DNA of 60,129 nucleotides, the filler included, from Globobulimina sp. (taxonomy: Eukaryota): the NCBI GenBank assembly GCA_003354225.1. It is 14 parts of 14 records of this genome, joined end to end, with 100 filler letters (N's around TTAATTAATTAA, not from the genome) between each part and the next. Parts side by side here need not be neighbours in the genome. Positions count along the whole stretch, not along the records: positions 51,636 to 55,832 come from PIVH01001482.1; 13 more parts are not named here. One strand, 5' to 3'. This document shows, one piece after another, positions 8,616 through 55,932 of the stretch (positions are counted from its first letter, which is position 1; each line of letters opens with the position of its first letter). A program made the position numbers and the translations under genes. The notes below the pieces were generated by a model that was not told the DNA's origin, did not search any database, and was given only the letters and a program-made list of their open reading frames with translations.

Positions 8616-11600
8616 TGATTTAGTATTTAATCCTATTATCCAACGAAATCTATGGAATCAGTCACAATTTGGTCCCGGATTGCTACAGTTTCAATGTAAT
8701 CAAAATTATCTAAATACGAATTATAACGCCGACCCGGATGATTCTAAAGATTTTGTGATGGAAACGTCTCAACCTTTTATACCAAGCGAGTCATTGGTTG
8801 TTAGCCAGTGCGAGAATGCCGACATTAAAATTGATGATATCTCGGCAGAGTATAACGATCATTTTATTATAAATAACAATCGAACGGTGTATATATGTCC
8901 TATTATTGGGTGCGATAAGCACCGTACTTCCGCACATTTGTCATCATTTGTTGATTATTGGACCAATTCATACATTGCAAACAAACGACCCGTGCGTTTT
9001 TATGGATTTATAAAGAAATCTGAGCTAAAAGCTCATTTAACAAAATATCATTTATTAGCAAATCCAAGCTCGATTCCGCCAAAATATCTAATAAAATATA
9101 GTTATAATATATGTAGAATATGTAGCAAATTTTGTCGACGCTCAACCGATGCACATCCCGGTTGTATACAGAAAGAAACAGATTTTATAATTCCTGCGGA
9201 CAAACTAGAATCATTTGAGTCTGCGTCGTTAGATATTATTCAGGCATTACAACCAAAGTTATTATTTAATATACCTTCGTCGTGTACCACATTATTCACT
9301 GAGTTATTGAGTGAAATTATCGAATCAGCAGCTAACCCGAACACGAATCAGGCGCATTTTTTCAAACTTTATCATGCATTTACTAAATTAATATTAATAA
9401 AGCCACCAAAGCGTAGTGGCAGACGAAGATATATGCAACGCGCTAAAATGTGTAAAATACGTTTGAAGATGTTTCGGGATCAAAAATATGATTTATTATG
9501 GACCCATTTATTACAGCATATGGATACTTTGGCAGAAATGAGTCAGAAACGGCTCAAACGCGGTAAAGTTATGCAGCCCATTGCCAATCAATTATTTATG
9601 CGACAAAGGCGAGCGGTTAATTACGTTCGCGAAGGTGACTTAAGTCGGGCGGCTGCAGCGTTGACAACCAATGGTATGGCCCCATTAACTGACGCAATTA
9701 GACAACAATTAGTCGATAAGCATCCGGCCCAACATCGACCTGATTTGACTATATTTAATACCGAAAATCTACCGGAGATTGAATTAATTTCAGGCGAGAT
9801 TTATAAAACATGCCTGAAACAGCAACGATTGGGGGGTTCCGGACCTTCATTATTGAGACCGTATCATATCCGGCAATGTGCGCGGAGTTTTAGTGGACGC
9901 AAATTAGCGTTAAGCATTGCAAAATTTGGGCGATGTCTATTTAGTGGGAATTTCCCATTATATTTAGGTAGATATTTCGCCGCGTCCTCATTATATCCGC
10001 TATGGAAAGATAGTACGTTAACTGGTGCCAGACCTATAGCAGCCGGCGACGTTTTAGACAGAGTTATTGGTCGAACTGTTATGAGAGATAAGCGGATGGA
10101 ATGGAGAGATTTATTGGAACCGGAACAATTGTGCCTATCCGAGCGCGGTACAGAAAAATGTATATTCGCTTGTAAGCACGCAATTGCCGCCAATAAAGAT
10201 AATAAGGATTGGATTATGGTGGCGGTCGATATTAAAAATGCATATAATTCCGGCGATAGACAGATAAAATTAATTGCAACACAGAAATATGCGCCGGAAT
10301 TGTTAAACTTCGAAATATTAAAATATAACGATAGTATACCATTATATTTATCGGATGGTACAGTAATTCAGTCGCAAGCTGGCGGCAAACAAGGCGACAC
10401 ATTGGCTGGTTTTAATCATGGTTTGTATGATAAACTCATTGTCGATCCTATCCGATCCAAACCGAAGTATAATAATTTATTGAATGTCGCATTTGCCGAT
10501 GATAGAAATTTCGGCGCCAATACAAAGACAGCGGCAAGTTTCTATAGAGAGACTCGCGAAGCTTTGGGTAATGCCGGAAGCGAATATGGATCAGTTAAAT
10601 GTTTCATTTTTATGCATCCGGATAATCCATACATTGATAATACTGTTACTGAACCGGACGAGGAGAAGGCCGAAAAACTCCGACATTATAAAATCAGGGA
10701 AATGTTCGGAGATTCGGATATATCCATTCATTATGGATTTAATATGAAATTATTAGGAGCCTATATTGGCGAAGATGAATATGTAAAAGAAAGAGTTGGT
10801 GAGAAAGTGAAGGAGTTACAATTTCTTATGGACCAAGCCGCCGCTTTAGAGGATACGCAGGCGGCGGTTTTATTATTATCAAACTGTTTTGATGCGTGTC
10901 GATTAAATCATATTATCCGCACAACGCATCCGTTGATTATTATTAATGCATTAAAAGATTTTGATTTTTCATTAAAGGAGTCGTTCGAACGTATTTTTGG
11001 TCGAACTTTTACTGATTTTGAGTTTATGGAATTTTGTTTGGGTATCAAGGAGGGCGGTCATGGGGTTCGCACAATTGAAGACATTTCATACGCGGCCTAT
11101 CTGGGTTCCTATGCGCAGACAATTCCATATTTACAAACTATTGGTAATAAGATTGATTGTGATTTATTTTCAAATAATATTTATAATGATTTTGTCGCAT
11201 TAAAACAGTTATTTTGTGAGAAATATAATGTCGATCCGTTGAAATTAAGTGATAATTCATTATTTAATCAAGAAATATTATCGGATTATATTAAGGATTA
11301 TAGGTTGGCTCAATATGAGTCTACTTTGAGTACAGCCATTAACAAAAGTAGACACTCAACGGCAAAGGCTGCCAATTCGGGCGCTTGGATCCGCGCTAAG
11401 CCAACGAGGTCGGCAACTATTCTATCACCAATAATATACAAATTTGCAACATATTCAAGGTATGGATGGAAGATATTTGATTGGAATGTGGATGAGAGAA
11501 ATTGTGTTGATTGTGATGCGGAAATGGATGCCTACGGTACTCACTGTATTAATTGTGGAAGCCGGGACGGTATTTTTACGTATACACATAACAAAATTAG

Positions 11601-12191
11601 AGATTGTCTCGTTTTTTATTCGAAGCGAGCAGGATTTTTGGTTGAGAAGGAAAAGCCAGGTTTATTGGATTCCGGTGCTAAACCGGCGGATTTGTATCTA
11701 TTTAATTATTTAAAAGGTCAAGATTATGCATTTGATGTGACTGTGGTGTCACCGTATAAATTAAATCAGTTAGCTGATACTATCCGGTTTACCGGTATTT
11801 CAGCTGACATTGCTATCCGTAATAAGTATAAGAAATATGAAGAGGATATTAAATCAGTTCATTGGAAATTTCAACCGATTGCTTTCGAAAGAAGTGGGGG
11901 GTGGAGTTTACCCGCCCAACTATTTGTGAAACGAATTGCGAAACAATATGGATCTAAATTTAATATTAATTCAAATATTATTACCAATATTATAACATCG
12001 GAGATTAGTTGTATTCTTCTTAAAAACACAGCTTATATGATTACGAAACGTAAAGTTGATAATGGTCCTTCATTTTTATAAAATATAATCTATTTTTAGC
12101 TTTTGTGAGTATTTGTTTTTTGTTTTGTTTTCTTTTTTGTTTTGTCTTGTTATTATTTTTAAGTTCAGCTCACAATATTTCTTCTAAAAAA
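8616..12191 (+). mobile_element. CRE-like retrotransposon copy including a short T-rich 3' UTR and A6 tail
   Basis: The ORF above is followed by about 100 nt of T-rich sequence and CTAAAAAA, after which unrelated coding sequence begins. Confidence 0.8.
8617..12081 (+). CDS. CRE-clade non-LTR retrotransposon ORF (Zn fingers, reverse transcriptase, CCHC, restriction-like endonuclease), 5' partial
   Basis: N-terminal CPIIGC...HLTKYH and CRIC..HPGC; RT motifs RPIAAGD, VDIKNAYNS, QGDTL, FADD, LLGAYIG; CVDC-x7-HCINC; THNKIRD; RLE KPADL..AFDVTV..K..KY, PIAFERSGGW. The frame is open to the contig start. Confidence 0.93.
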   Translation, partial: DLVFNPIIQRNLWNQSQFGPGLLQFQCNQNYLNTNYNADPDDSKDFVMETSQPFIPSESLVVSQCENADIKIDDISAEYNDHFIINNNRTVYICPIIGCDKHRTSAHLSSFVDYWTNSYIANKRPVRFYGFIKKSELKAHLTKYHLLANPSSIPPKYLIKYSYNICRICSKFCRRSTDAHPGCIQKETDFIIPADKLESFESASLDIIQALQPKLLFNIPSSCTTLFTELLSEIIESAANPNTNQAHFFKLYHAFTKLILIKPPKRSGRRRYMQRAKMCKIRLKMFRDQKYDLLWTHLLQHMDTLAEMSQKRLKRGKVMQPIANQLFMRQRRAVNYVREGDLSRAAAALTTNGMAPLTDAIRQQLVDKHPAQHRPDLTIFNTENLPEIELISGEIYKTCLKQQRLGGSGPSLLRPYHIRQCARSFSGRKLALSIAKFGRCLFSGNFPLYLGRYFAASSLYPLWKDSTLTGARPIAAGDVLDRVIGRTVMRDKRMEWRDLLEPEQLCLSERGTEKCIFACKHAIAANKDNKDWIMVAVDIKNAYNSGDRQIKLIATQKYAPELLNFEILKYNDSIPLYLSDGTVIQSQAGGKQGDTLAGFNHGLYDKLIVDPIRSKPKYNNLLNVAFADDRNFGANTKTAASFYRETREALGNAGSEYGSVKCFIFMHPDNPYIDNTVTEPDEEKAEKLRHYKIREMFGDSDISIHYGFNMKLLGAYIGEDEYVKERVGEKVKELQFLMDQAAALEDTQAAVLLLSNCFDACRLNHIIRTTHPLIIINALKDFDFSLKESFERIFGRTFTDFEFMEFCLGIKEGGHGVRTIEDISYAAYLGSYAQTIPYLQTIGNKIDCDLFSNNIYNDFVALKQLFCEKYNVDPLKLSDNSLFNQEILSDYIKDYRLAQYESTLSTAINKSRHSTAKAANSGAWIRAKPTRSATILSPIIYKFATYSRYGWKIFDWNVDERNCVDCDAEMDAYGTHCINCGSRDGIFTYTHNKIRDCLVFYSKRAGFLVEKEKPGLLDSGAKPADLYLFNYLKGQDYAFDVTVVSPYKLNQLADTIRFTGISADIAIRNKYKKYEEDIKSVHWKFQPIAFERSGGWSLPAQLFVKRIAKQYGSKFNINSNIITNIITSEISCILLKNTAYMITKRKVDNGPSFL

Positions 12192-17225: not shown

Positions 17226-17344
17226 TTGCGACATTTTCTAAAAGTTAAGCAATAATGGAATCTGAGAAAGTGAAACAAAACATCATCCATTTAACATATG
17301 GATATGTTAGAAATGAATTTGAAGCACGGGATGCCTCTGTTATG
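17226..17344 (+). repeat. 119-bp exact terminal direct repeat of contig 5 (second copy 21311-21429)
   Basis: The contig starts and ends with the identical sequence ttgcgacattttctaaaag...gcctctgttatg. Confidence 0.97.
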
Positions 17345-19263: not shown

Positions 19264-20138
19264 CTATTTTAAGCTGTTTTTAATTAAATTGTTAATGAAG
19301 TATTCAAATTTGTTCATAAAAAGACAAATCGGTGGTAATCGATTCAAATTATTATACGAAGGCTTTTTTATATCCAAATGTGTCTGGCAAATTCCATAAA
19401 TTGCTTCATTGTCCAATACAACTGAGATCTCTGTGTGGTCCAATAACCAATGAGTTGCTAATAATGCATTGTATGGTTCAACAACACATGTTGATATTAT
19501 TGGTGATGGATATACTTCAAATCCACACTAAATACACAATATTATGCATGCAGTGCATTTAAAGTGAATATAATATTTTTTAACTTTTGATTTCTTTCTG
19601 TAATCCACAGCAATGCGTTCCAAGATCAATGCTCCCAAACCGCTGCCAGTCCCACCACCAACAGAATGATTGAAAACAAAGCCTTGAACATTATCACAGT
19701 TATCCACCAACTTTCGTATGCGATCATTGACTTTGTCGATCATCTCTTTACCGACGGTGTAATGTCCACGGGCAAAATTGTTGGCTGCGTCTTCTTTGCC
19801 AGAGAGTAAGAATTCATTGTTGTAGATTTCTTTGAGTTTGCTGCTTTTTATATCATCGATTACATTTGATTCGAGGTCTACCTGTCATGCATATTTAATA
19901 TTATTTGTTTTTGTTTCTATCCAAACATGTATCATACCATTAGGTTGCGAGGGACGTATTTCCCAGCATTTGTTTCATCGAAAAATGTGCAAAATGCTCT
20001 GTCAAACCGGTAATGAGAATAGTTAACTATGGTACCTTGGCTGTTTATATTGTGCTCGCCACAATATTGGTCCCACACACAATTTCCTAGTTGAACCCCA
20101 CATTGACCAATAGAAACTGATAATACTTCTCGTGGCAT
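19264..20138 (-). pseudogene. Alpha-tubulin of Retaria alpha2 type, truncated after about residue 230; introns 19937-19882 and 19584-19528
   Basis: [68 protein letters not shown]. Homology stops after NLNRL at 19336 and the frame runs on to a stop at 19264. Confidence 0.9.
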
Positions 20139-21009: not shown

Positions 21010-21529
21010 TGTGTTTGAATATGCATTTAAACTATCTTTTATTTGATCTAACCCCTACGTATAGAATTAGATTAATAATTGTAATGATCAAAAAAAAACA
21101 CCTACTTCATTCATTTGTGGCTGACATTTTTTCCACTGTTTTATTTCTTTTGTTTGGTTGTGTGTGAGATCCAATACATTAGATTCAAAACCACCGATTT
21201 TTGCTATCTGGGATTTGCCCATATTACGCTTGTAATTACCACGGAATGCGATTCTTTTCGGGAGTGCCATGTCAGACAAAAAGCTTTAAGTTAAGCAAAA
21301 ATAATAAATATTGCGACATTTTCTAAAAGTTAAGCAATAATGGAATCTGAGAAAGTGAAACAAAACATCATCCATTTAACATATGGATATGTTAGAAATG
21401 AATTTGAAGCACGGGATGCCTCTGTTATGNNNNNNNNNNNNNNNNNNNNNNNNNNNNNNNNNNNNNNNNNNNNTTAATTAATTAANNNNNNNNNNNNNNN
21501 NNNNNNNNNNNNNNNNNNNNNNNNNNNNN

Positions 21530-24500
21530 TTACGCGAGCAAGATCTGACCGATTTAGCTCAGGTTGGCGACTCTTTCCAAAACATCCAGCGCGTGGTCGA
21601 AGACGCAGGTAAGACTGCAGCCGTTCGTGACATGAAAATCTTAGAATCTGCCATGAAACACGGCTACTTTTTATTTATGAACCAGGTGGAAGTGCAGGAA
21701 CAGATCGACTTGGCGCAGCATTTTGATGCGGATCAAATTGGAAGGAATTGTTTACAGTTACATAGTGGTCGCATATTATATTCCTGCGAACAAGTCGAGA
21801 ATATGATTGATCGCATCTTATTATGTCGGCGCAATACGGAGCATAATGTGCAGAAATTAGTGAAGAAGTTGGAGATTTGTAGGGAGATCAATTCGTTGCG
21901 TGTATTGTTTACGCGATCGGGTGGACGCGAGGAAGGTTATGGCGACGTGCTGCGAAAGAAAAAGCTGGTTAATAAGAAGCGAATGTTGCAGCGGTATAAG
22001 TTGCGTGAAGAACAACGTAAACGCAGATTGATTGAAAAGAAGCAGAAAGATAAGGAGCGAATTGCCAAAATCAAACAGCAAATGAAAGATGATGGCTTGC
22101 CGTCATTGGAACCATTGCAGGCGATGAAGCATTTGGAGGTTGTGGAGGAAGAGGAGGAGCAGGCCAATAATGTAGAATTCAGCGATGAAGAGCAAGAGAT
22201 TAAGATCAACGACGAAGAGCTGAAAGAATTGGAGGATATCGGCGAGGATGAGGACAATATCGCGTCTTATTTGAAGACTCCAGTCTCTTTAAAGTTGGCT
22301 GATTATGACGAATTTAGTAAGGAATGGCTGGTCCGGGTAACCGAATGGAATACACATGTGGAGATATTACGGTCTTCGAGCGCATTGATGAATTATTTTA
22401 CGATTAATAATGTACGGACATTGATTGAGAAAATCAATCGGATTATCAAACATGCCAAGAATAACCCGGTCGGGAGAGGCAAAGCCAAAGTTAAAGCAAA
22501 GAAATCAGGGCAGATTAGCGGGACCGACACTTTTATTGATGGGTTGAATCCGGATATATTGCAACGGCATATTTTGCCACATTTTCAATTTGTTAATCCG
22601 CGCTTGCAAGTGGAGGATTTAATAAAATGTCTCAAGAAATGGAAGGTTATGGACGAATCTTGTAATACTGCGTTGACTGCGTTTGACAAATGTTTTAAAG
22701 GCATCATTGTGAGGAAGTTGCATGACACAAAACAGTTTACGCGCAATGTGTCGCCGTTGGAAGAGGGCAAACCGAACTTAGTGGTGACTGCGCGGAATAC
22801 CGCCTTGTTTACAGCGTTGAAAATGTATTTACAACGCAAATTGATACCCAATGCAGAGCATATATTGATATGTCAAAATACGTCGTCTGCGGAGGAAATC
22901 GAAGCGATGATTTTTCGATGTATTCATGCCACCACACGGCACAGTGAGATACCGCCATTGTATTGTTTAATATATCCGGAAGATTTAGATGCCGGCGTAT
23001 TAGATGCGACTATTAACATATTCAACAATCGGTTATTATCTCCGCGAGCATTGGAGCAAACGAGTAAGATTCCATATGCTTTTAGTGTGATATCCGCAGA
23101 TTCTGAGAATAGATTATCTCAAATGTTGGTGCAGTTTAAATTGACCCAATCGATACAGCTTCAAAAGGAAGAAAGTACGAATTTGTTGAAATATTTATTT
23201 CATGATTCGTTGCATGAATTTGTACAGCGATATAACCCCTTTGTGCGAGCTAAGCCTTTCGTGGAACTGTATACGTCAAAGGAGGTTGGTATGGGTAAAT
23301 CGTATGTGATCCAACAAAAAGTCAAACTATGCGGCGCTACGTATATTCGTATACCGTTCAATGGCGATGATATAGATTTAGATTTCTTGGTAGATCGCTG
23401 TTGGTCGTATCATTCGTATACAGAGCATCTAGAAAATGATATGGAGAAAGCATTGGTGATGGATGCTTTGAGTGAAGCGGATAAAAAGGATAACAACGCC
23501 GCAGATGATATGGGCGAAAAGGTTAAAAAAGTGAGTGCAAAGTACGCCAAATTAAAAAGTGCGTCGTATGACAAGAATGCTGCTGATCCGCGTAAGATTA
23601 TATATCATTTGGATATCTCTGCCAACGCCGGGGAAGATTTAAATAATATGTTGTTCAATTTGCTATTTTTACGACATATTCATACTCCAAATAAAAAATG
23701 CTTTTCTGTCGACGATAATATGGCTTTTTTGATTGAAATTCCAACGGAGTTATCTGGTGTTCACGCATTGAATGTCTTAAAACAACAGAAAACTGCGCAG
23801 AATCAAGCAGCAAACATACAAAATAAAGCCACATTAAAACAACCATGGGATGTGTTTTATTTATTGTACAAACCAATGGAATTTCCGTCCATTGCAGTGT
23901 CGAATGACACTAATTTATTCCATTATGATTATGATTGTCATTATGCGGGCAAATTTTTGCGTAGTTTTTATGGCAACGAATTGAAACAAAACGACCCGGA
24001 TCCGTCCACTGTGGCAAATATGACTGATGATGAGATCCATGCATTGATCTACAAACATTTTCAAAATATTGCAGAATCCTCACCCATTCATTACAAGGCA
24101 TTCTTTAAGTTCTTATCGCAGCAATTTACGCAAGTCGTAAACTCCATATTCCTGCGGAACGAATTCAATGATGGCGGACAAATCGCGTGGAAGCATTGGG
24201 TCACTTCTTCCATTATTGATATTGGCAAAGATTTTTGTCGCCGGTTGTACGGCGGCGTGGTACATAAACGAAGGAATGGCGACGAACATAAAGGCAAAAC
24301 CAGTGAAGAATTAATTGATGAGTCCACCGGGAAGGAACACTTTTATTTATGTGAACGTTGGAAGAATGCGAGAGAACCAATGTTTTTATTGAATCAAACG
24401 TGTGATTTTGGCTATGGCGGACCGGACGGCAGTATATCGGCCTTAGTCTCTGATAAATATACATTGCCGCAAGAAAAGCGCACCGCTTTGGAGAATAGTA

Positions 24501-25732
24501 ACTTTATACTGATCCCGTGGAATGAAGAAGAGGAACGGCGGCGACATATGTTATTACAGACGAATTTCATGAACGAATTACCACAACGCAAACAAGAGAA
24601 AATTAACTTATTTTTGCGTATTTTAGGGCTGGACGTGGAGAATAATGTGATTCATCAATCCATTTTGATCTCGTTGCTGTTCGAGGATCCATTTGCAAAT
24701 TATGCCTTGACCTTTGATAATATCCTCAAAATGGTGGCTATTTTCTTTCGCGTCAAATCCGACATACCCGTCATCCTCATGGTATGTATGCCTTTTATTG
24801 CATTGTTTGCATATAATACCTACGCAACACAAAAAGGGCGAAACTGGCTGTGGCAAAACTTCGTTATTACGATATTTGGCCAAAGCAGCATCGGTAGAAT
24901 TTTGCCAAGCCGATGTCCACGGCGGCTTTACAGCGACTCATATTCGCAGCAAAATGTCGGAGTGGATCCAGATTGCCAAACGCAAACAAAATGACGTCGC
25001 AGTCAACACCACATCGCAGGACGTCTGGGTCTTTTTAGACGAAGTCAACACCTCCCCCGATATTGGATGGTTTAAAGAAATTGTCTGCGATCACAGTTTA
25101 GATGGCATCCCCTTGCCATATAACATGAAAGTGATCGCCGCGTGCAACCCATACCGGCGTCGCAAACTAAACATGGACATTGGTGACGAGAAAGGCAATA
25201 AAAAACACAAGAAAATCATCAATGAACAGTTTAAAAATTGGATGGCAGCGTCTGGTTCGGATGACCCTTTGGCGCAGTTTATGTATCGAGTGTACCCGTT
25301 GGCCCCCACTATGAAAGAGTATGTGTGGATGTTTGGCAGTTTATCAGCGTTGGACGAGCTGCAATATGTATGCGAGATGGTGAATAATACGGTACGTAAA
25401 CTGCCGCGAGACGTACAGAAGAATTTCAGTGACTGGCAACGCAAACGTTTGATTGATGCCATTGTCAAATCGCAGGAGTTTGTACGCGATGTATTGCGTG
25501 ATGCGGCGTATGTATCTTTGCGTGATGTCGCTCGCTGTTTGCGTATTATTGAATGGTTAATGAGCAATGAGCTAAAATTTGCGACCTCCAATTCTTGGAT
25601 CGAACGTGCCACGGTTCAAGCTTTAGCATTGGTGTATTACTTTCGGTTGGATAGTATCAATCGGATTCGCTACGCCAAGCGCATCACGCCCGATGTATGT
25701 GGCCGCATTGCCTGGTTTAATAACCGCGACTT
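21530..25732 (+). CDS. RNF213/mysterin-like dynein-related AAA+ ATPase, internal fragment; intron 24782-24836
   Basis: TSKEVGMGKS, IYHLDIS, YALTFDNILKMVAI..IPVILM|GETGCGKT, VHGG, VFLDEVNT, IAACNPYR, YRVYPL, VSLRDV. A 55-nt GT-AG intron joins the two ORFs. Confidence 0.88.
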
Positions 25733-26595: not shown

Positions 26596-27822
26596 TCATT
26601 GTAAATTTTTATTTCTAGTCCCACGAGACAGAGTTTTCAGTTCCGATGCAGAAATCCATGAGTCATTAGATCTGTTAAAACCAGCCCAGGATACTAAAAG
26701 CATTGTTTTTCTTCCAACCTTCTTTTTTCTCCATACTTTTTGCACTTCAAAAAGATCTTTATCTGGATCCACATGAATTTGTTGCAATTCTGTAGCATAC
26801 GCCCTTCCTTCCAGCAGCTTTCCTTTGTGGTCCTCCAAACCATACATGGGAGGTTTTTGTCCATGTGACACATCCTTCACAGTGAAATACTCCCTGGTCC
26901 AATTACCACTACCAGTGCTTTCCTTTTCGAATGTTCCCTTAAGCCTGGACAGTCTCACTTTATCTCCAACTTTGGGGTCATTTCTTTTGGGTATAACTTT
27001 TGGTTCTTCTTCCACTTTGGTACCATAAAGTTTGCGAAAAGCTGCACGGTCAGCATCAAATTTTGTCATGATGTCAATTGGCTTTTGACCAGTTATTCTG
27101 CTTGTTGATTTATTATAATGTGAAACACACAGTTTCAGTGCTTCCAGCCATTTGTTAGTGTTTTTGGCATTTTGATACCGTCTTATGTAGGTGCGAGCCG
27201 TTCTTATAAAGCGCTCGCTTTGCGGCGCCTTCGTCTTGGAAGATGTCGTATAGAAGTGTACACCATTCTTCTTGAAAAAATTTCTTGTGCTGGCACTTAC
27301 ATGTTCGCCAGCTTTGTCCCCTAATGCTTTCTCTGGCTTGTAACCAGTTTTAAAAATAGTATCCAATGCATCTTGTATATTCTTTGAATTGTTGTGCGAA
27401 AGAGGCACACAAAAGACAAAACGGGAATAACTATCCACAGCTATGAGAGCAAAATTTATGGATTTTCCAGTGTCAGAATCCTTTTCAGGATTCTGTCTTT
27501 GGTCCATGAGGTCAAATTGCATCAATTCTGTCTTGAATTGAATCTGGAAGCTATTTCTCTTATAATGTTTCCTGGCTGGTTTCCAGAGAGTGTAAGTAGG
27601 TTGCGATCTACAAAATGTGCAAGTTTAAAGGAGTACTACAGCAACAATAAAAAAGACTTACTTGAGCCATTCTTTAACCAATTTTATTGTAATACTTTTA
27701 TTTAAAGATTTGGCTGCTTTGTACAGAGGCATAATACCACGCAAAGATGATTTATTCTTTTCATTGTAATATAAGTTGTCCAATAATTGTTTCTGATTGT
27801 CGCTTATCACCACTTGAGCCAT
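26596..27822 (-). CDS. Maverick rve (c-)integrase with C-terminal chromodomain; exons 27822-27662 and 27607-26596 (390 aa)
   Basis: LYYN..LYKAAK..VKEWLK|SQPTYTLWKPARK, QFDLMD, VDSYSRF, GDKAGE, SERFIRT, YN, VGDKVR, FEK..NWT, chromodomain MLLVSWAGFNRSNDSWI. The 54-nt intron contains an in-frame stop. Confidence 0.92.
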
Positions 27823-51535: not shown

Positions 51536-51635
51536 NNNNNNNNNNNNNNNNNNNNNNNNNNNNNNNNNNNNNNNNNNNNTTAATTAATTAANNNNNNNNN
51601 NNNNNNNNNNNNNNNNNNNNNNNNNNNNNNNNNNN

Positions 51636-52658
51636 AACGAACCGAAGAATATCTGGTATTTCGGACTCATTTGTATTGTTTTTATAATCTAAAATAAATG
51701 AATCCGTATCGTATTCATCATTCATCAAAAAATTATGCAATTTATTCACAATATTTAGATTTATATTATATTTCACCATTTCATCGTTTAATCCGTCCAT
51801 AAAACAAATAATAACATCATCTGTCTCGGTCTCCGCAGCTGCTTCTTTTTTCTCGTCGGCGTCAAACAAAATGGAACCGGCATTGATATAATTATTCGTT
51901 GTTATAAATTTACTGAAATTAGAGGTTGTTCTTCTTGTTACTCGACACCGCGTCGAATTGCATCGTATTGTTTTAATGGTTTTTGTTAATTGATGAGCCA
52001 TATAATCTTTACACAATACATAATTATCAAAATTCTTCTCATCCATATTATTATTCTCATTTATCGATTTGTTATCTACCAATTTATTCAAATCAATTCG
52101 CATCGTATGATATATATAACAATGCACAGAGTCCAGACATTGTTGATGTGCTATCGACTGATTTGCGTCATTTGCATCTATATTCTTATTATCATTAATA
52201 AAATAAAATGCATTTCGTTGTTTATAATGCCTCGAATAATATGCCTTATCTCTTTCGTGTCTCTCAATGACAAAACACGAATTAATATCACATAAATCAT
52301 CACTTTTATTGTCCATATCGCCATTATCAAATCCTAATAAATGTTTATTATCGAGGACATGCTTAAAATCATTCAAACAATGGGCAAAATTATAATATTT
52401 TGATAATTCATTGTTTATTATATCGCCAATATCAATGTTAATATTGTTCTTATTTCTTTTTTTAATTTGAATCCACAATGAATAAATTCTCAGAATGCAT
52501 TTTAATCTTTTTATACATTCGTCGGTGTTGTGAATGGCACTTTGATTAAATAATGCAACCATATTATATTCTTTATTATTAATATCGATGCCATATTTCT
52601 GCAAATTTCTATGTCGTATTTCGGTTGATTGAGTTTGTTGTTTTGTTTCTTGTGATTT
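51636..52658 (-). CDS. Lineage-expanded hypothetical protein with a Cys/His-bearing domain, partial
   Basis: CIKRL..L..Y, LNDFKHVL..H, CDINSC...RH.R, LDSVHCYIYH, SKF, EYDTDS. The frame opens at a TTTGTTTAG acceptor at 52659. Confidence 0.6.
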
Positions 52659-53872
52659 CTAAACAAAACAAATTTTTTATTATATAGGAGTAATCCTTTG
52701 ATTTGTGTGCAAGGATAGGACTTTGGACATAAGCATAATGTGTACCTTATTTCCCATATTGATTTACAATTCGATCGCACCAATTTGTTATTGGTTTATC
52801 GTGTACTTTTCTCTTACATTTTTTCGAGTGTATATTAGAAGTTCGAGTTTTTTCTTAAATAAGAACTGAATGGCTCTAATTTCCATTTATAATAATCTTC
52901 TGTTCGTGGCTCACAGAGAAGCGCGTTTAACTTATTTCAACGCGAGATTTTAAAGCCTATACTCGAATCGAGTTCAGCCGACCCCCCAATAAATATTACT
53001 GAGTCATCATCCGTCGACAACCATGAACGAGCATTCCAGGCATTTAAAGACAAATGGCTCCTTCATCATGATTCACAGGCTGCAGATCGATTATTTAATG
53101 CGCTGTATGACTCGGGCTCAGACGCTCATATTTTGGATGAAAAGGAGAAAGAAATTGACATTTAGATATTAATAATTAGTATTAGAATTATTTGGGTTTA
53201 TTTTATGTGGATTAGTTTTGTTTTATTTTATTTTAACTTATTTTATTTTGTTCATTTTGATTGGTTATATTATAATCGATGTGTTTCGATATTTCGATTT
53301 TGATTTTGACTTTTGTTGTACAAATTGATTTTATCTCTTTCGTTTATTTTGCTTGCTTTCATAACCGTATTTTATCTGATTTTATTTGATTATTTTATCG
53401 ATAATCTATATTGTTTCATCGTATATTCATTCCATTTCGTTTTATTTTAATATTATTTTATTTCTTGAAATATGTGATTATTATCATTTTACCTCATTCC
53501 TTGTCTTTAAATTTTTATTAATGATAATGTTTGTTGATATTATATTCTTTATTTTTATTTTGCTCACATTTTCAATGTTGGCAAGCACATATATTGGTAT
53601 TTGGATTTGGATCAATAATGATAATATTTTGATTTTGTATACAATTCATCCCATTAATTATTCGTTTTATATTTCATTTTTCTATGATTGCTTTGATCAT
53701 ATTTATAATTATTGATTGGTTGTATTTGTAATTTGATTCCTTTATCCTTCACCTCTATATTTTCATTCTTTTTATAATTTGTGGATTTTTGTTATTTTTG
53801 TGTCCTTACATAGTGATAAAGTTTTTTAGTTTTGGTTTTTCTTATTTAGAAAACCACTTAACTTTTAAATTT

Positions 53873-53911
53873 AACTCCTGACGAAGACAGTATCTGTCGA
53901 AACGTCGAATT
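53873..53911 (+). ncRNA. Minimal type I hammerhead ribozyme of the Penelope-like-element kind
   Basis: AACUC-CUGACGA-A-GACAG(UAU)CUGUC-GAAA-CG-UC/GAAUU: complete catalytic core, 5-bp stem II, palindromic ACGU in place of stem III, stem I with 4 of 5 pairs. Confidence 0.8.
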
Positions 53912-54085
53912 TTTGTCTTGTTTAAAATAACCCTATCTAGAAACAAACACCTCACAAAACACATTCATATTGGATTGATATTAAACAAATTCATCCAATC
54001 AGCTTTCTTTCTGTTGTAAAAATGTATATCGTTTGTCAAAATCATTCTAATTTTCGGAAAACTGCATTCCATTACTTTGTGAACA

Positions 54086-55560
54086 ATGCTCTCTCTTTGC
54101 ATTACTCTCGCAATTTTACTAAATTGCTGCACATCTGCACAACAACTCGCATCCGATGGTTTATCACCTGTCGATTTTTTGATTACTTCGTTACCCGCTT
54201 TTAATGGAAGTTTCAACGACATTCCATTTAAACAGTATTCCGGCTATATGCCATTGGGAGATATTGACGAAACAGCATTATTTTTTTGGTTTCTTGAATC
54301 ACAAAGTAATCCTTCCACTGATCCATTGGTTTTATGGTTAAACGGCGGACCTGGCGCATCTTCGCTTGATTATGGTTTTTGGACAGAACACGGACCATTC
54401 AGATTACAGCAGAATGCAGTCAGTGTTTTGAGTAATTTTAATTACTCATGGAACAAAATAGCAAATGTAATATATTTAGAAACACCATCAGGTTATAAAA
54501 TTATATCCGATCCCCTTCCTTAACATAAGAAACATAACATTTGCTTCTAACAGGAGTTGGATATTCTTATTCGAACAGGTCATCAGGTTATAACTGTTCA
54601 GACAATAAAACAGCAGAAATAAATTACTTATTTTTGCAAAACTTCTTGAATGTGTTCACTGACTATGGCGGGTCGCATGAGATAGTACTAACTGGTGAAA
54701 GTTATGGAGGACACTATATTCCTCAGTTGGCGCAGTACATTATCCAACATAACAATAATAAATGGAATGTGACTGGATTTCTATTGGGTAATCCAGATAT
54801 AAATTTGGATTTTGATTATGCTCCAAATGCATTTGCATTTACAACATATATGTGGTCGCACGGATTATTGCCGCAAACAGCATATATCAAATCATATATT
54901 GCTTGCGATTGGGACCAGTTTTTAACAAATTGTTCGAGAGAGTTTACCCATCCAACAGATGAATGTATAGCTGCTAATAATGCGTCATATGAATATATGC
55001 CAAATTGTATTCCTGATATGAACCCTCCGACCTCTTGCAATCATGATATTTATGTGCCAACTTGTCATGAAAATAGCACTTCAAAGGTGGAATTCCAACA
55101 AGATGGTTATGTGTATAATCCGTGTATGTATAATTGGACGCCGATGTATATGAATCGAGAGGATGTGCTTAAAGCGATTCATGCATTCGGTCATTACAAC
55201 AGAACGTATCCAGATGCCCCAAGCAATTGGTTTTATGCGGACAATAGGCAGAATATGGCGTTGTTGTATCCTTACTTTTTTGAACAAAGACCAAATTGGA
55301 AAATTAGTATCATTTCAGGTGATGCGGATCCTGATGGAAATTGTTTATCAATGCAACGAGAGATTACTTGTTTTAACAGACCAGTCGTTAAGGAGTGGTT
55401 TAATTGGATGATGGATGGAGATGTTGCTGGTGCTGTTCAAATATATCAAGGAATTACCTTTCAAACTGTCAAACATTGTGGACATATGATACCAACTTAT
55501 TGTCCTAAAGCTGGGTTTCAGTTTTTTCAGCAATATGTTTCTGGAATATATAGTTCCTAA
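54086..55560 (+). CDS. Serine carboxypeptidase (peptidase S10); intron 54492-54553
   Basis: Signal peptide, [61 protein letters not shown]. Confidence 0.95.
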
Positions 55561-55932
55561 CTTTTTACATAATTATTACCGCATTCTGCTATCTTAGTAC
55601 TTTAAAAACGTTTTTTAACTTTTTTTTAAAGGAGAGGGGAAAACAAGGCTTTGTAACTTGTGTTAATTAAAGTCGGGGGGCTAGCATAGCACAAATGCTT
55701 AGATTTATTTAATTATTATTATATGATTCCGAGAGACTAGATATTAATCTCAACGCCACAAAATTCTAAATTACAATAATTTAGAGGGAGTCTCTTACAT
55801 CATATAATATGTAACAATCAAACAGATCTAATNNNNNNNNNNNNNNNNNNNNNNNNNNNNNNNNNNNNNNNNNNNNTTAATTAATTAANNNNNNNNNNNN
55901 NNNNNNNNNNNNNNNNNNNNNNNNNNNNNNNN

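Follow-up and report, generated by a model that had tools for sequence, protein, structure and literature searches.

Minimal hammerhead ribozymes (min-HHRs) have been documented massively in animal genomes, where they are tied to Penelope-like elements (PLEs); they possess no helix III beyond a palindrome and are expected to act as dimers (Cervera & de la Pena 2014, PMC4209133). According to the same study, four features emerge consistently beyond the min-HHR descriptor, and the supplementary consensus is written as 'CUGANGAH GNNNNN...NNNNNC GAAAN Palind NU H', flanked by U-rich and AU-rich sequence. The majority of these hammerheads occur singly and are described there as 'probably related to truncated PLEs', and 5'-truncated PLEs retain the 3' hammerhead only; a variant in D. 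virilis has a helix I of 2 bp, and the hammerheads of protist PLEs have a long helix III and are monomeric (PMC4209133). Here we describe a motif of the minimal, dimer type in a 60-kb window (the whole stretch of DNA analysed, 60,129 nucleotides, from the Globobulimina sp. assembly GCA_003354225.1). The motif sits within a dispersed repeat of approximately 104 nt, and it probably represents a solo fragment, itself probably 5'-truncated, of a hammerhead-bearing retroelement with a PLE-type min-HHR, most likely inert at this locus. All coordinates refer to the whole window, and the locus analysed is the spacer at 52659-54085.

Several other described systems bear on this comparison. For a PLE of Anolis, PMC11167929 describes reverse transcription that starts shortly 3' of the hammerhead, with tolerance of 5' truncation and AT-rich targets, and cleavage that is protein-assisted and not required for insertion in vitro. 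In the endonuclease-deficient PLEs of the Athena/Coprina type the hammerhead is followed by short reverse-complement telomere repeats, and it is PLEs of this kind that have been reported from protists, endonuclease-bearing PLEs having long been thought to be confined to animals (PMC8557442). Animal retrozymes are now argued to derive from the pseudo-long terminal repeats (pseudo-LTRs) of PLEs (bioRxiv 10.64898/2026.07.22.740005).

The window motif has the layout of a minimal type I hammerhead, 39 bases long, on the + strand (53873-53911), and was recognised by pattern, by the min-HHR consensus and by a covariance model. As RNA it reads CUGACGA-A-GACAG-UAU-CUGUC-GAAACGUC at 53878-53906 followed by GAAUU, corresponding in the DNA to CTGACGA-A-GACAG-TAT-CTGTC-GAAACGTC at 53878-53906 and then GAATT. 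Its parts, in order, are the 5' strand of helix I, AACUC (53873-53877), the core CUGACGA (53878-53884), an unpaired A (53885), helix II, GACAG-UAU-CUGUC, with five Watson-Crick pairs and the loop UAU (53886-53898), GAA (53899-53901), the self-complementary palindrome ACGU comprising positions 15.1, 15.2, 16.2 and 16.1 (53902-53905), C17 (53906) and the 3' strand of helix I, GAAUU (53907-53911). From hammerhead numbering, self-cleavage is predicted at GUC^G, between C53906 and G53907. The sequence AAAATAA is found at 53925-53931, 3' of the motif. The original prediction for this DNA, made from the sequence alone, had described the hammerhead string, the GAATT (53878-53911) and a following A-rich AAATAA, all of which were recovered in place, and its assignment of the architecture as that of a minimal type I, dimer-type PLE hammerhead is in agreement with the consensus of PMC4209133.

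The motif shows five of the six features of the min-HHR descriptor for PLEs (PMC4209133, supplementary Fig. S7), which served as the reference. Box 1 of the descriptor, CUGANGA, is present as CUGACGA at 53878-53884; the optional extra unpaired H between A9 and G10.1 is A53885; helix II, for which the descriptor gives 3-7 bp, closure by G10.1-C11.1 and a loop of 3-10 nt, has 5 bp, closure by G53886-C53898 and a loop of 3 nt; and box 2, GAAA-NN-U-H with palindromic 15.2/16.2 (dimeric helix III), is present as GAAA-CG-U-C with C15.2-G16.2. The unpaired A, the G10.1-C11.1 pair, the palindromic C15.2-G16.2 and the GUC are also among the features that PMC4209133 gives beyond its own descriptor. Thus the motif resembles the min-HHRs of metazoan PLEs in being of type I, in having CUGANGA with an extra unpaired non-G, G10.1-C11.1 and the palindrome A-CG-U, and in its AU-rich flanks, and supplementary Fig. 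S3 of PMC4209133 shows the very same layout, 'CUGANGAA G...C GAAA CG U H', in its rows for Xenopus and Trimeresurus. Because a palindrome takes the place of a real helix III, two copies must pair, and this dimer type sets the motif apart from the protist PLE hammerheads with their long, monomeric helix III (PMC4209133).

Differences from the metazoan min-HHRs were also found. Helix I of the window motif has two contiguous pairs, against a descriptor minimum of three, and helix II has 5 bp as opposed to the 7-8 bp of the commonest schistosome families. The host is apparently a non-animal, intron-poor and AT-rich eukaryote, and no PLE open reading frame (ORF) is linked to the motif within the window. 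The Rfam hammerhead families share the catalytic core with the window motif, and minimal forms lacking helix III appear to fall outside the Rfam models.

How often such a motif would arise by chance depends on the strictness of the descriptor. A lax 'any hammerhead' descriptor was matched in 34 of 150 Markov-simulated windows, so it proves nothing on its own, and the core pattern, when nothing is asked of stem II, has an expectation of 0.02 per window. The strict min-HHR descriptor (in order, a stem II of 4-8 contiguous pairs around a loop of 3-8 nt, the GAAA box, an A..U palindrome 4 nt long and a final H, i.e., non-G) was matched in 8 of 2000 windows simulated with independent and identically distributed bases. 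Under the same descriptor, 4 of the 2000 simulated windows matched when stem II was at least 5 bp, one when four of the five helix I pairs were demanded, and none when a stem II of at least 5 bp was combined with G10.1-C11.1. The motif is therefore unlikely by chance within one window.

To establish copy number, Logan contigs of four public runs (X1, X2, X6 and X8) were mapped on 51640-55830. X1 is the probable source run, X2 comes from a close relative that is 0.6% divergent in the peptidase exon of the neighbouring gene, and X6 comes from a relative approximately 6-7% diverged; X6 is RNA, since the 62-nt GT..AG intron of the neighbouring gene has been spliced out in it. Single-copy contigs of X1 have a depth of 4.5-10.8, as against a summed depth of 119-124 at 53863-53872 and a mean of 159 over the bin 53880-54019, which puts the motif in multi-copy sequence, with approximately 15-20 times single-copy depth on ~53849-53952 only. 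A 161-nt X1 contig matches the window only at 53849-53952 (13 substitutions and 4 gap letters) and a 564-nt X2 contig only at 53850-53951, and both run into unrelated flanks. Further loose contig ends occur at 53952 (X2, X8) and at 53918-53920 (X6, X8); one at 53892 in X2 resembles sequencing adapter and was ignored.

This depth peak, together with contigs leaving into unrelated flanks, places the motif inside a dispersed repeat unit of ~104 nt on the + strand (53849-53952), delimited by contig depth and by the limits of contig matches and spanning -57 to +46 around the predicted cut. The limits agree in two runs (X1, X2); with 5' limits at 53849/53850 and 53918-53920 and the end at 53952 in two runs, they rest on few contigs and are bounded by the window copy's own extent. 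Of the 71 contigs of X1 that mapped, 45 are less than 95% identical to the window, a count that pools this repeat with another at 55560-55830, and all six of the indels listed in the repeat segment (at 53863, 53866, 53872, 53916, 53920 and 53923) fall outside 53873-53911. One X2 contig joins the unique T-rich spacer to repeat sequence, with 26 substitutions and 36 gap letters over 53398-53905, which makes the insertion common to X1 and its close relative. In X6 the summed depth over the repeat is 85.6 at 53863 versus 24.7 for the contig of the carboxypeptidase mRNA, which hints weakly at transcription of repeat copies in this ~6-7% diverged relative. Within the 60-kb window, a repeat search and sensitive blastn identified no second copy of the region and no direct repeat.

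A search for the same layout elsewhere was made with a 19-base pattern in which the core, the additional A and the outermost and innermost pairs of helix II were fixed and three helix II pairs were left free. Three public collections were scanned, comprising metagenome contigs, prokaryote genomes and viral contigs. The 26 metagenome loci that matched differ by composition: all three free pairs are formed by 10 of 12 loci with a low G+C (0.36-0.46) versus one of the 14 with a G+C of at least 0.50, nine of which represent one bacterial coding gene. Among the hits in prokaryote genomes the three pairs form in 1 of 10 and among the viral hits in 0 of 2, the chance rate being ~5%. The well-formed metagenome loci make up five sequence families, whose copies share short hammerhead-centred segments (-28..+60, -38..+60, -29..+42 and -137..+24 from the cut site), and judging by sequence the layout of the window repeat resembles these segments. 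At one of the metagenome loci (L016:258-340) a nearly perfect inverted second min-HHR copy lies directly upstream, and the two form a long hairpin, to which Rfam wrongly gives a score as a precursor of a miRNA; this inverted pair agrees with the 'dual min-HHRs on opposite strands' of PMC4209133.

Eleven low-GC metagenome sequences were aligned and the other 15 loci were left out, a selection that makes the helix II statistics circular. Helix I was not used in the selection, and in the aligned sequences it is 64% paired, with four of its five pairs varying on both sides. Overall pairing in the alignment is 81%, versus 61% in shuffled alignments (0 of 500 reaching 81%) and 29-46% when the partners were slid. 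These comparisons argue that a min-HHR layout with an unpaired A and a 5-bp helix II is a real natural class.

The main alternative to a ribozyme is that the ~104-nt repeat is some other short dispersed element, either similar to a short interspersed nuclear element (SINE) or a miniature inverted-repeat transposable element (MITE) or else a regulatory hairpin module, whose hairpin mimics the hammerhead core. Several results favour it and, by the same token, weigh against the retroelement reading. In a nearest-neighbour calculation the structure of lowest energy is a simple hairpin with an interruption (UGACG/CGUCG and helix II), at -10.1 kcal/mol (z -1.9) as against -2.8 kcal/mol for the hammerhead-compatible fold, and the conserved hairpin of an unrelated repeat would give the same picture. 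When two copies were folded together with ViennaRNA an extended intermolecular hairpin duplex was obtained, the hammerhead dimer itself being pseudoknotted in linear notation (32 crossing pairs) and thus outside the reach of this energy calculation. Helix I is weak: its pairs C53877-G53907 and U53876-A53908 are followed by a C53875·A53909 mismatch and then by A-U and A-U, so that four of five positions pair and only two contiguous pairs adjoin the core where the published descriptor asks for at least three; by this rule that descriptor would have overlooked the motif. A run of T5 lies after the hairpin. From the simulation rates, a genome of at least 100 Mb would be expected to carry a few such motifs by chance. 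A MITE-like repeat lies 1.7 kb off, suggesting that short repeats are common here, and no reverse transcriptase (RT) was found nearby, an RT or GIY-YIG domain being present in 0 of the 123 window ORFs of at least 80 aa.

Comparison with known families bears on the same question. The Rfam hammerhead families gave no match, either at the gathering threshold over the whole window or at E<=10 over 53700-54050 (351 nt). A covariance model trained on the 11 metagenome sequences, with the window excluded, scored 53871-53913 at 49.6 bits, the next best of 25 matches (E<=10) reaching 10.7 bits, a score that is partly circular because the pattern that retrieved the training loci was itself derived from the core of the window motif. 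The evidence of covariation likewise comes from the metagenome families and not from the window repeat's own copies.

Some of these points lose force on closer inspection. As a control, the Rfam models were applied to 13 metagenome min-HHR loci, 10 of them well-formed in the same layout, and detected none, and the Rfam negative for the window consequently weighs little. The existence of the D. virilis variant with a 2-bp helix I makes the helix I shortfall a weakness rather than an exclusion. Competition from the hairpin is partly inherent in the layout wherever N7 is C or U, and N7 varies in the metagenome families (A, U, C, G); this variation breaks the competing hairpin, which is thus not what the layout conserves in them. 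Against the hairpin element stand also the coincidence of five independent descriptor features, including the unpaired A and G10.1-C11.1 (the combination seen in no simulated window), and the fact that the identical layout forms covarying families in low-GC metagenome contigs. In addition, such an element would here be one without terminal inverted repeats around 53849-53952 (read from the sequence), without a tRNA-like part (tRNA scan) and without a promoter or terminator-like site (promoter and terminator scan). On balance we consider a hairpin element devoid of ribozyme rather doubtful.

Under the retroelement reading, 53873-53911 would be a genuine minimal dimer-type hammerhead of the kind found in the terminal repeats of PLEs, and the ~104-nt repeat would be the leftover of a hammerhead-bearing retroelement or of a non-autonomous derivative of one, inserted in spacer DNA that is AT-rich, with a serine carboxypeptidase gene starting 180 nt downstream. 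Going by what is described for the family, two copies in a multimeric transcript of the parent element would pair through the palindrome ACGU to form helix III, and each paired copy would then cut after GUC, at C53906. The copy in the window would be an inert relic unless it paired in trans with transcripts of other copies. The covariance model identifies exactly one hammerhead in the 60 kb and no degenerate partner, and the lack of a partner copy within this distance together with the weak helix I makes an inert relic the most likely state. Most likely, too, the fragment has no effect on the neighbouring genes at this locus. The window copy fits a solo, 5'-truncated remnant, and it is like the metazoan min-HHRs in that these are mostly solitary, dispersed copies thought to be 5'-truncated elements. 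A stem-loop at 53914-53949 was considered as an analogue of the AC-rich hairpin of PAc at which reverse transcription starts, and was rejected (z -0.18).

The spacer in which the repeat lies had itself been read by the original prediction as one element of 1.3 kb (52673-53940), a candidate non-autonomous PLE or retrozyme. Its description of the spacer was accurate. Approximately 1.3 kb separates a divergent pair of genes, a 356-codon frame on the - strand of unknown identity (51588-52658; ORF scan) and a Peptidase_S10 (serine carboxypeptidase) gene on the + strand starting with ATG at 54086; the start-less frame of about 90 codons at ~52896-53165 is an ATG-less open frame of 89 codons, stop included, found by ORF scan and codon usage (52896-53165, +); and the ~700 nt of T-rich sequence is a spacer of 683 nt with 55.5% T and 21% G+C (53166-53848, + strand, delimited by composition). 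That these parts are adjacent and on one strand, and that the T-rich tract is unusually long and strand-skewed for the window (the longest and most skewed among 14 low-GC segments, the mean AT skew being -0.35), speaks for a single non-autonomous PLE or retrozyme making circular RNA. Against this stands copy number, only 53849-53952 being multi-copy and 52620-53740, with the tract and the frame, remaining at single-copy depth in X1. The close relative X2 also retains 53398-53905, with ~5% substitutions plus indels in the T-rich spacer, as a fast-evolving orthologous spacer. We therefore regard the 1.3-kb element as very improbable. What does stand of the earlier proposal is a mobile element with no RT of its own, which multi-copy dispersed DNA and the lack of an RT at the locus fit; its extent of 1.3 kb does not.

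The 89-codon frame follows the codon preferences of the host. With log-odds trained on 13 large window ORFs, it scores 0.257 versus 0.214 +/- 0.084 for chunks of real genes (n=91), the other five frames scoring from -0.16 to -0.79. Single-copy depth and host codon usage together indicate that the tract and the frame are host spacer or host gene and not the body of an element; in the retroelement reading both would be unrelated single-copy host sequence. The frame matched no Pfam family and had no homologue among proteins of 48-156 aa, and in Atlas its best score was 0.87, to unrelated bacterial clusters, with no relative identified. A candidate acceptor AG occurs at 52915-16, and the frame is probably a host exon or a small orphan gene; the T-rich tract would then be its 3' untranslated region together with intergenic spacer. 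The X2 contig over 53398-53905 extends 245 nt leftward with sequence unlike the window, and the stretch with the frame (52900-53397) may differ structurally between the two near-identical strains. Contigs of X2, X6 and X8 leave 52900-53319 uncovered, a coverage hole that is not evidence either way.

Neither pseudo-LTRs of the PLE kind nor a partial tandem whose units each bear a hammerhead were identified, there being one hammerhead and no direct repeat in the 60 kb, and none of the window ORFs surveyed for the predicted linked PLE RT or GIY-YIG bears either domain. The sole transposon-type domain in the window is an integrase core (rve) in an ORF at 26599-27624 (-), with an E value of 1.1e-08. 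As regards retrozymes, the window element resembles the animal non-LTR and plant LTR forms (PMC7229834, PMC4918200) in being non-autonomous, hammerhead-bearing and intergenic. It differs in that those are tandem or LTR-flanked, with at least two hammerheads and circular RNA, whereas a single hammerhead, with no tandem repeat, is present in the window. A retrozyme is recognised by two or more hammerheads in direct repeats; with a single hammerhead and no direct repeat or tandem unit in the window there is no unit bounded by two cleavage sites, and the tract, having no second copy in the window, does not bear out the retrozyme that had been proposed.

The 3' module of the Athena/Coprina elements (PMC8557442) offers a further comparison. 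In the window, too, the unit has its hammerhead towards the 3' end, and 21 nt past the cleavage site, inside the repeat unit, is a telomere-like TAACCCTA (53928-53935, +), amounting to 1.3 units of a CCCTAA-type telomere C-strand repeat; 8-mers of this type occur only twice on either strand in the 60 kb. Unlike the arrangement described for Athena/Coprina in that source, the window has 1.3 repeat units only, and the locus is internal and gene-rich, not telomeric. As a telomere-repeat trace this sequence is a lead only, picked out post hoc by its resemblance to the generic CCCTAA type, which may not be the organism's own repeat.

The position of the motif also raises the question of co-option by the host, whereby the hammerhead would cut read-through from the small upstream gene (3'-end formation), or would insulate or regulate the carboxypeptidase gene 180 nt downstream. 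In keeping with this, the motif, the 89-codon frame and the peptidase gene share one strand, and the insertion is common to the close relative X2. However, a dimer partner is lacking and helix I is weak, and the X6 peptidase mRNA contig matches the window from 54071 on (with 22 unmatched letters upstream), so that the motif is not included in it. The surrounding spacer is, moreover, fast-evolving, and conservation is seen in two near-identical strains only. Co-option is accordingly quite unlikely in our judgement, and we return to the inert, solo fragment as the preferred explanation of the motif.

The window as a whole is gene-dense, intron-poor and eukaryotic, with a G+C of 35%. The Peptidase_S10 gene has two exons (Pfam E 2.8e-35 and 1.1e-53), separated by the 62-nt GT..AG intron at 54489-54550 that is removed in the X6 contigs. 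Among named organisms, the closest relatives of its product come from Reticulomyxa filosa (49% identity across 45% of the query), Monosiga brevicollis (43%) and Bigelowiella natans (38%), and one EukProt entry is 97% identical to it. For the window, an origin in Rhizaria or Foraminifera is plausible; a search with a fragment of the alpha-tubulin and one of Atlas with the peptidase did not narrow it further. Directly 3' of the carboxypeptidase stop codon is the second dispersed repeat (55560-55832), which continues up to the N run at 55833 and has a summed X1 depth of 358-438 versus ~8 for single copy. The segment 55699-55831 looks MITE-like, with inverted arms that are imperfect (80% over 20 nt, 100% over 11 nt) at its limits; Rfam showed no match over 55540-55832.

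Elsewhere in the window, an alpha-tubulin gene at 19267-19884 (-) is broken into two frames or more, which match Pfam Tubulin at E 3.7e-29 and 4.9e-08, and is at most 88% identical to environmental alpha-tubulins. A perfect direct repeat of 119 nt occurs at 17226-17344 and 21311-21429, 4085 nt apart and beside N runs, and the ORFs flanking it (8617-12078 and 21530-24991) are of equal length, 1154 aa, and may be paralogues or a duplicated segment. The joins between window parts consist of paired runs of 44 N, 12 bases apart (e.g., 51536-51579 and 51592-51635), occurring every ~4.3 kb and numbering 26 runs, and several long window ORFs run across them.

In the literature searched, no report was found of hammerheads together with Foraminifera, or of PLEs together with Reticulomyxa, Foraminifera or Rhizaria, the one co-occurrence being an entry in a reference list. 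A bolder interpretation would place a transcribed family of dimer-type min-HHR elements, an architecture so far described from animal PLEs only, in a protist that is rhizarian or foraminifer-like; the family might ride on an endonuclease-deficient, telomere-attaching PLE, a vehicle suggested by the terminal TAACCCTA 21 nt past the cut. We put this forward tentatively and think it unlikely as it stands; if true, min-HHRs would extend beyond Metazoa and would be linked to the telomeric PLE lineage of protists. Should the family be confirmed genome-wide, a ribozyme architecture already known would gain a new host group and with it a wider host range, and the small, intron-poor genome would lend itself to the study of the parent element and of what the ribozyme does.

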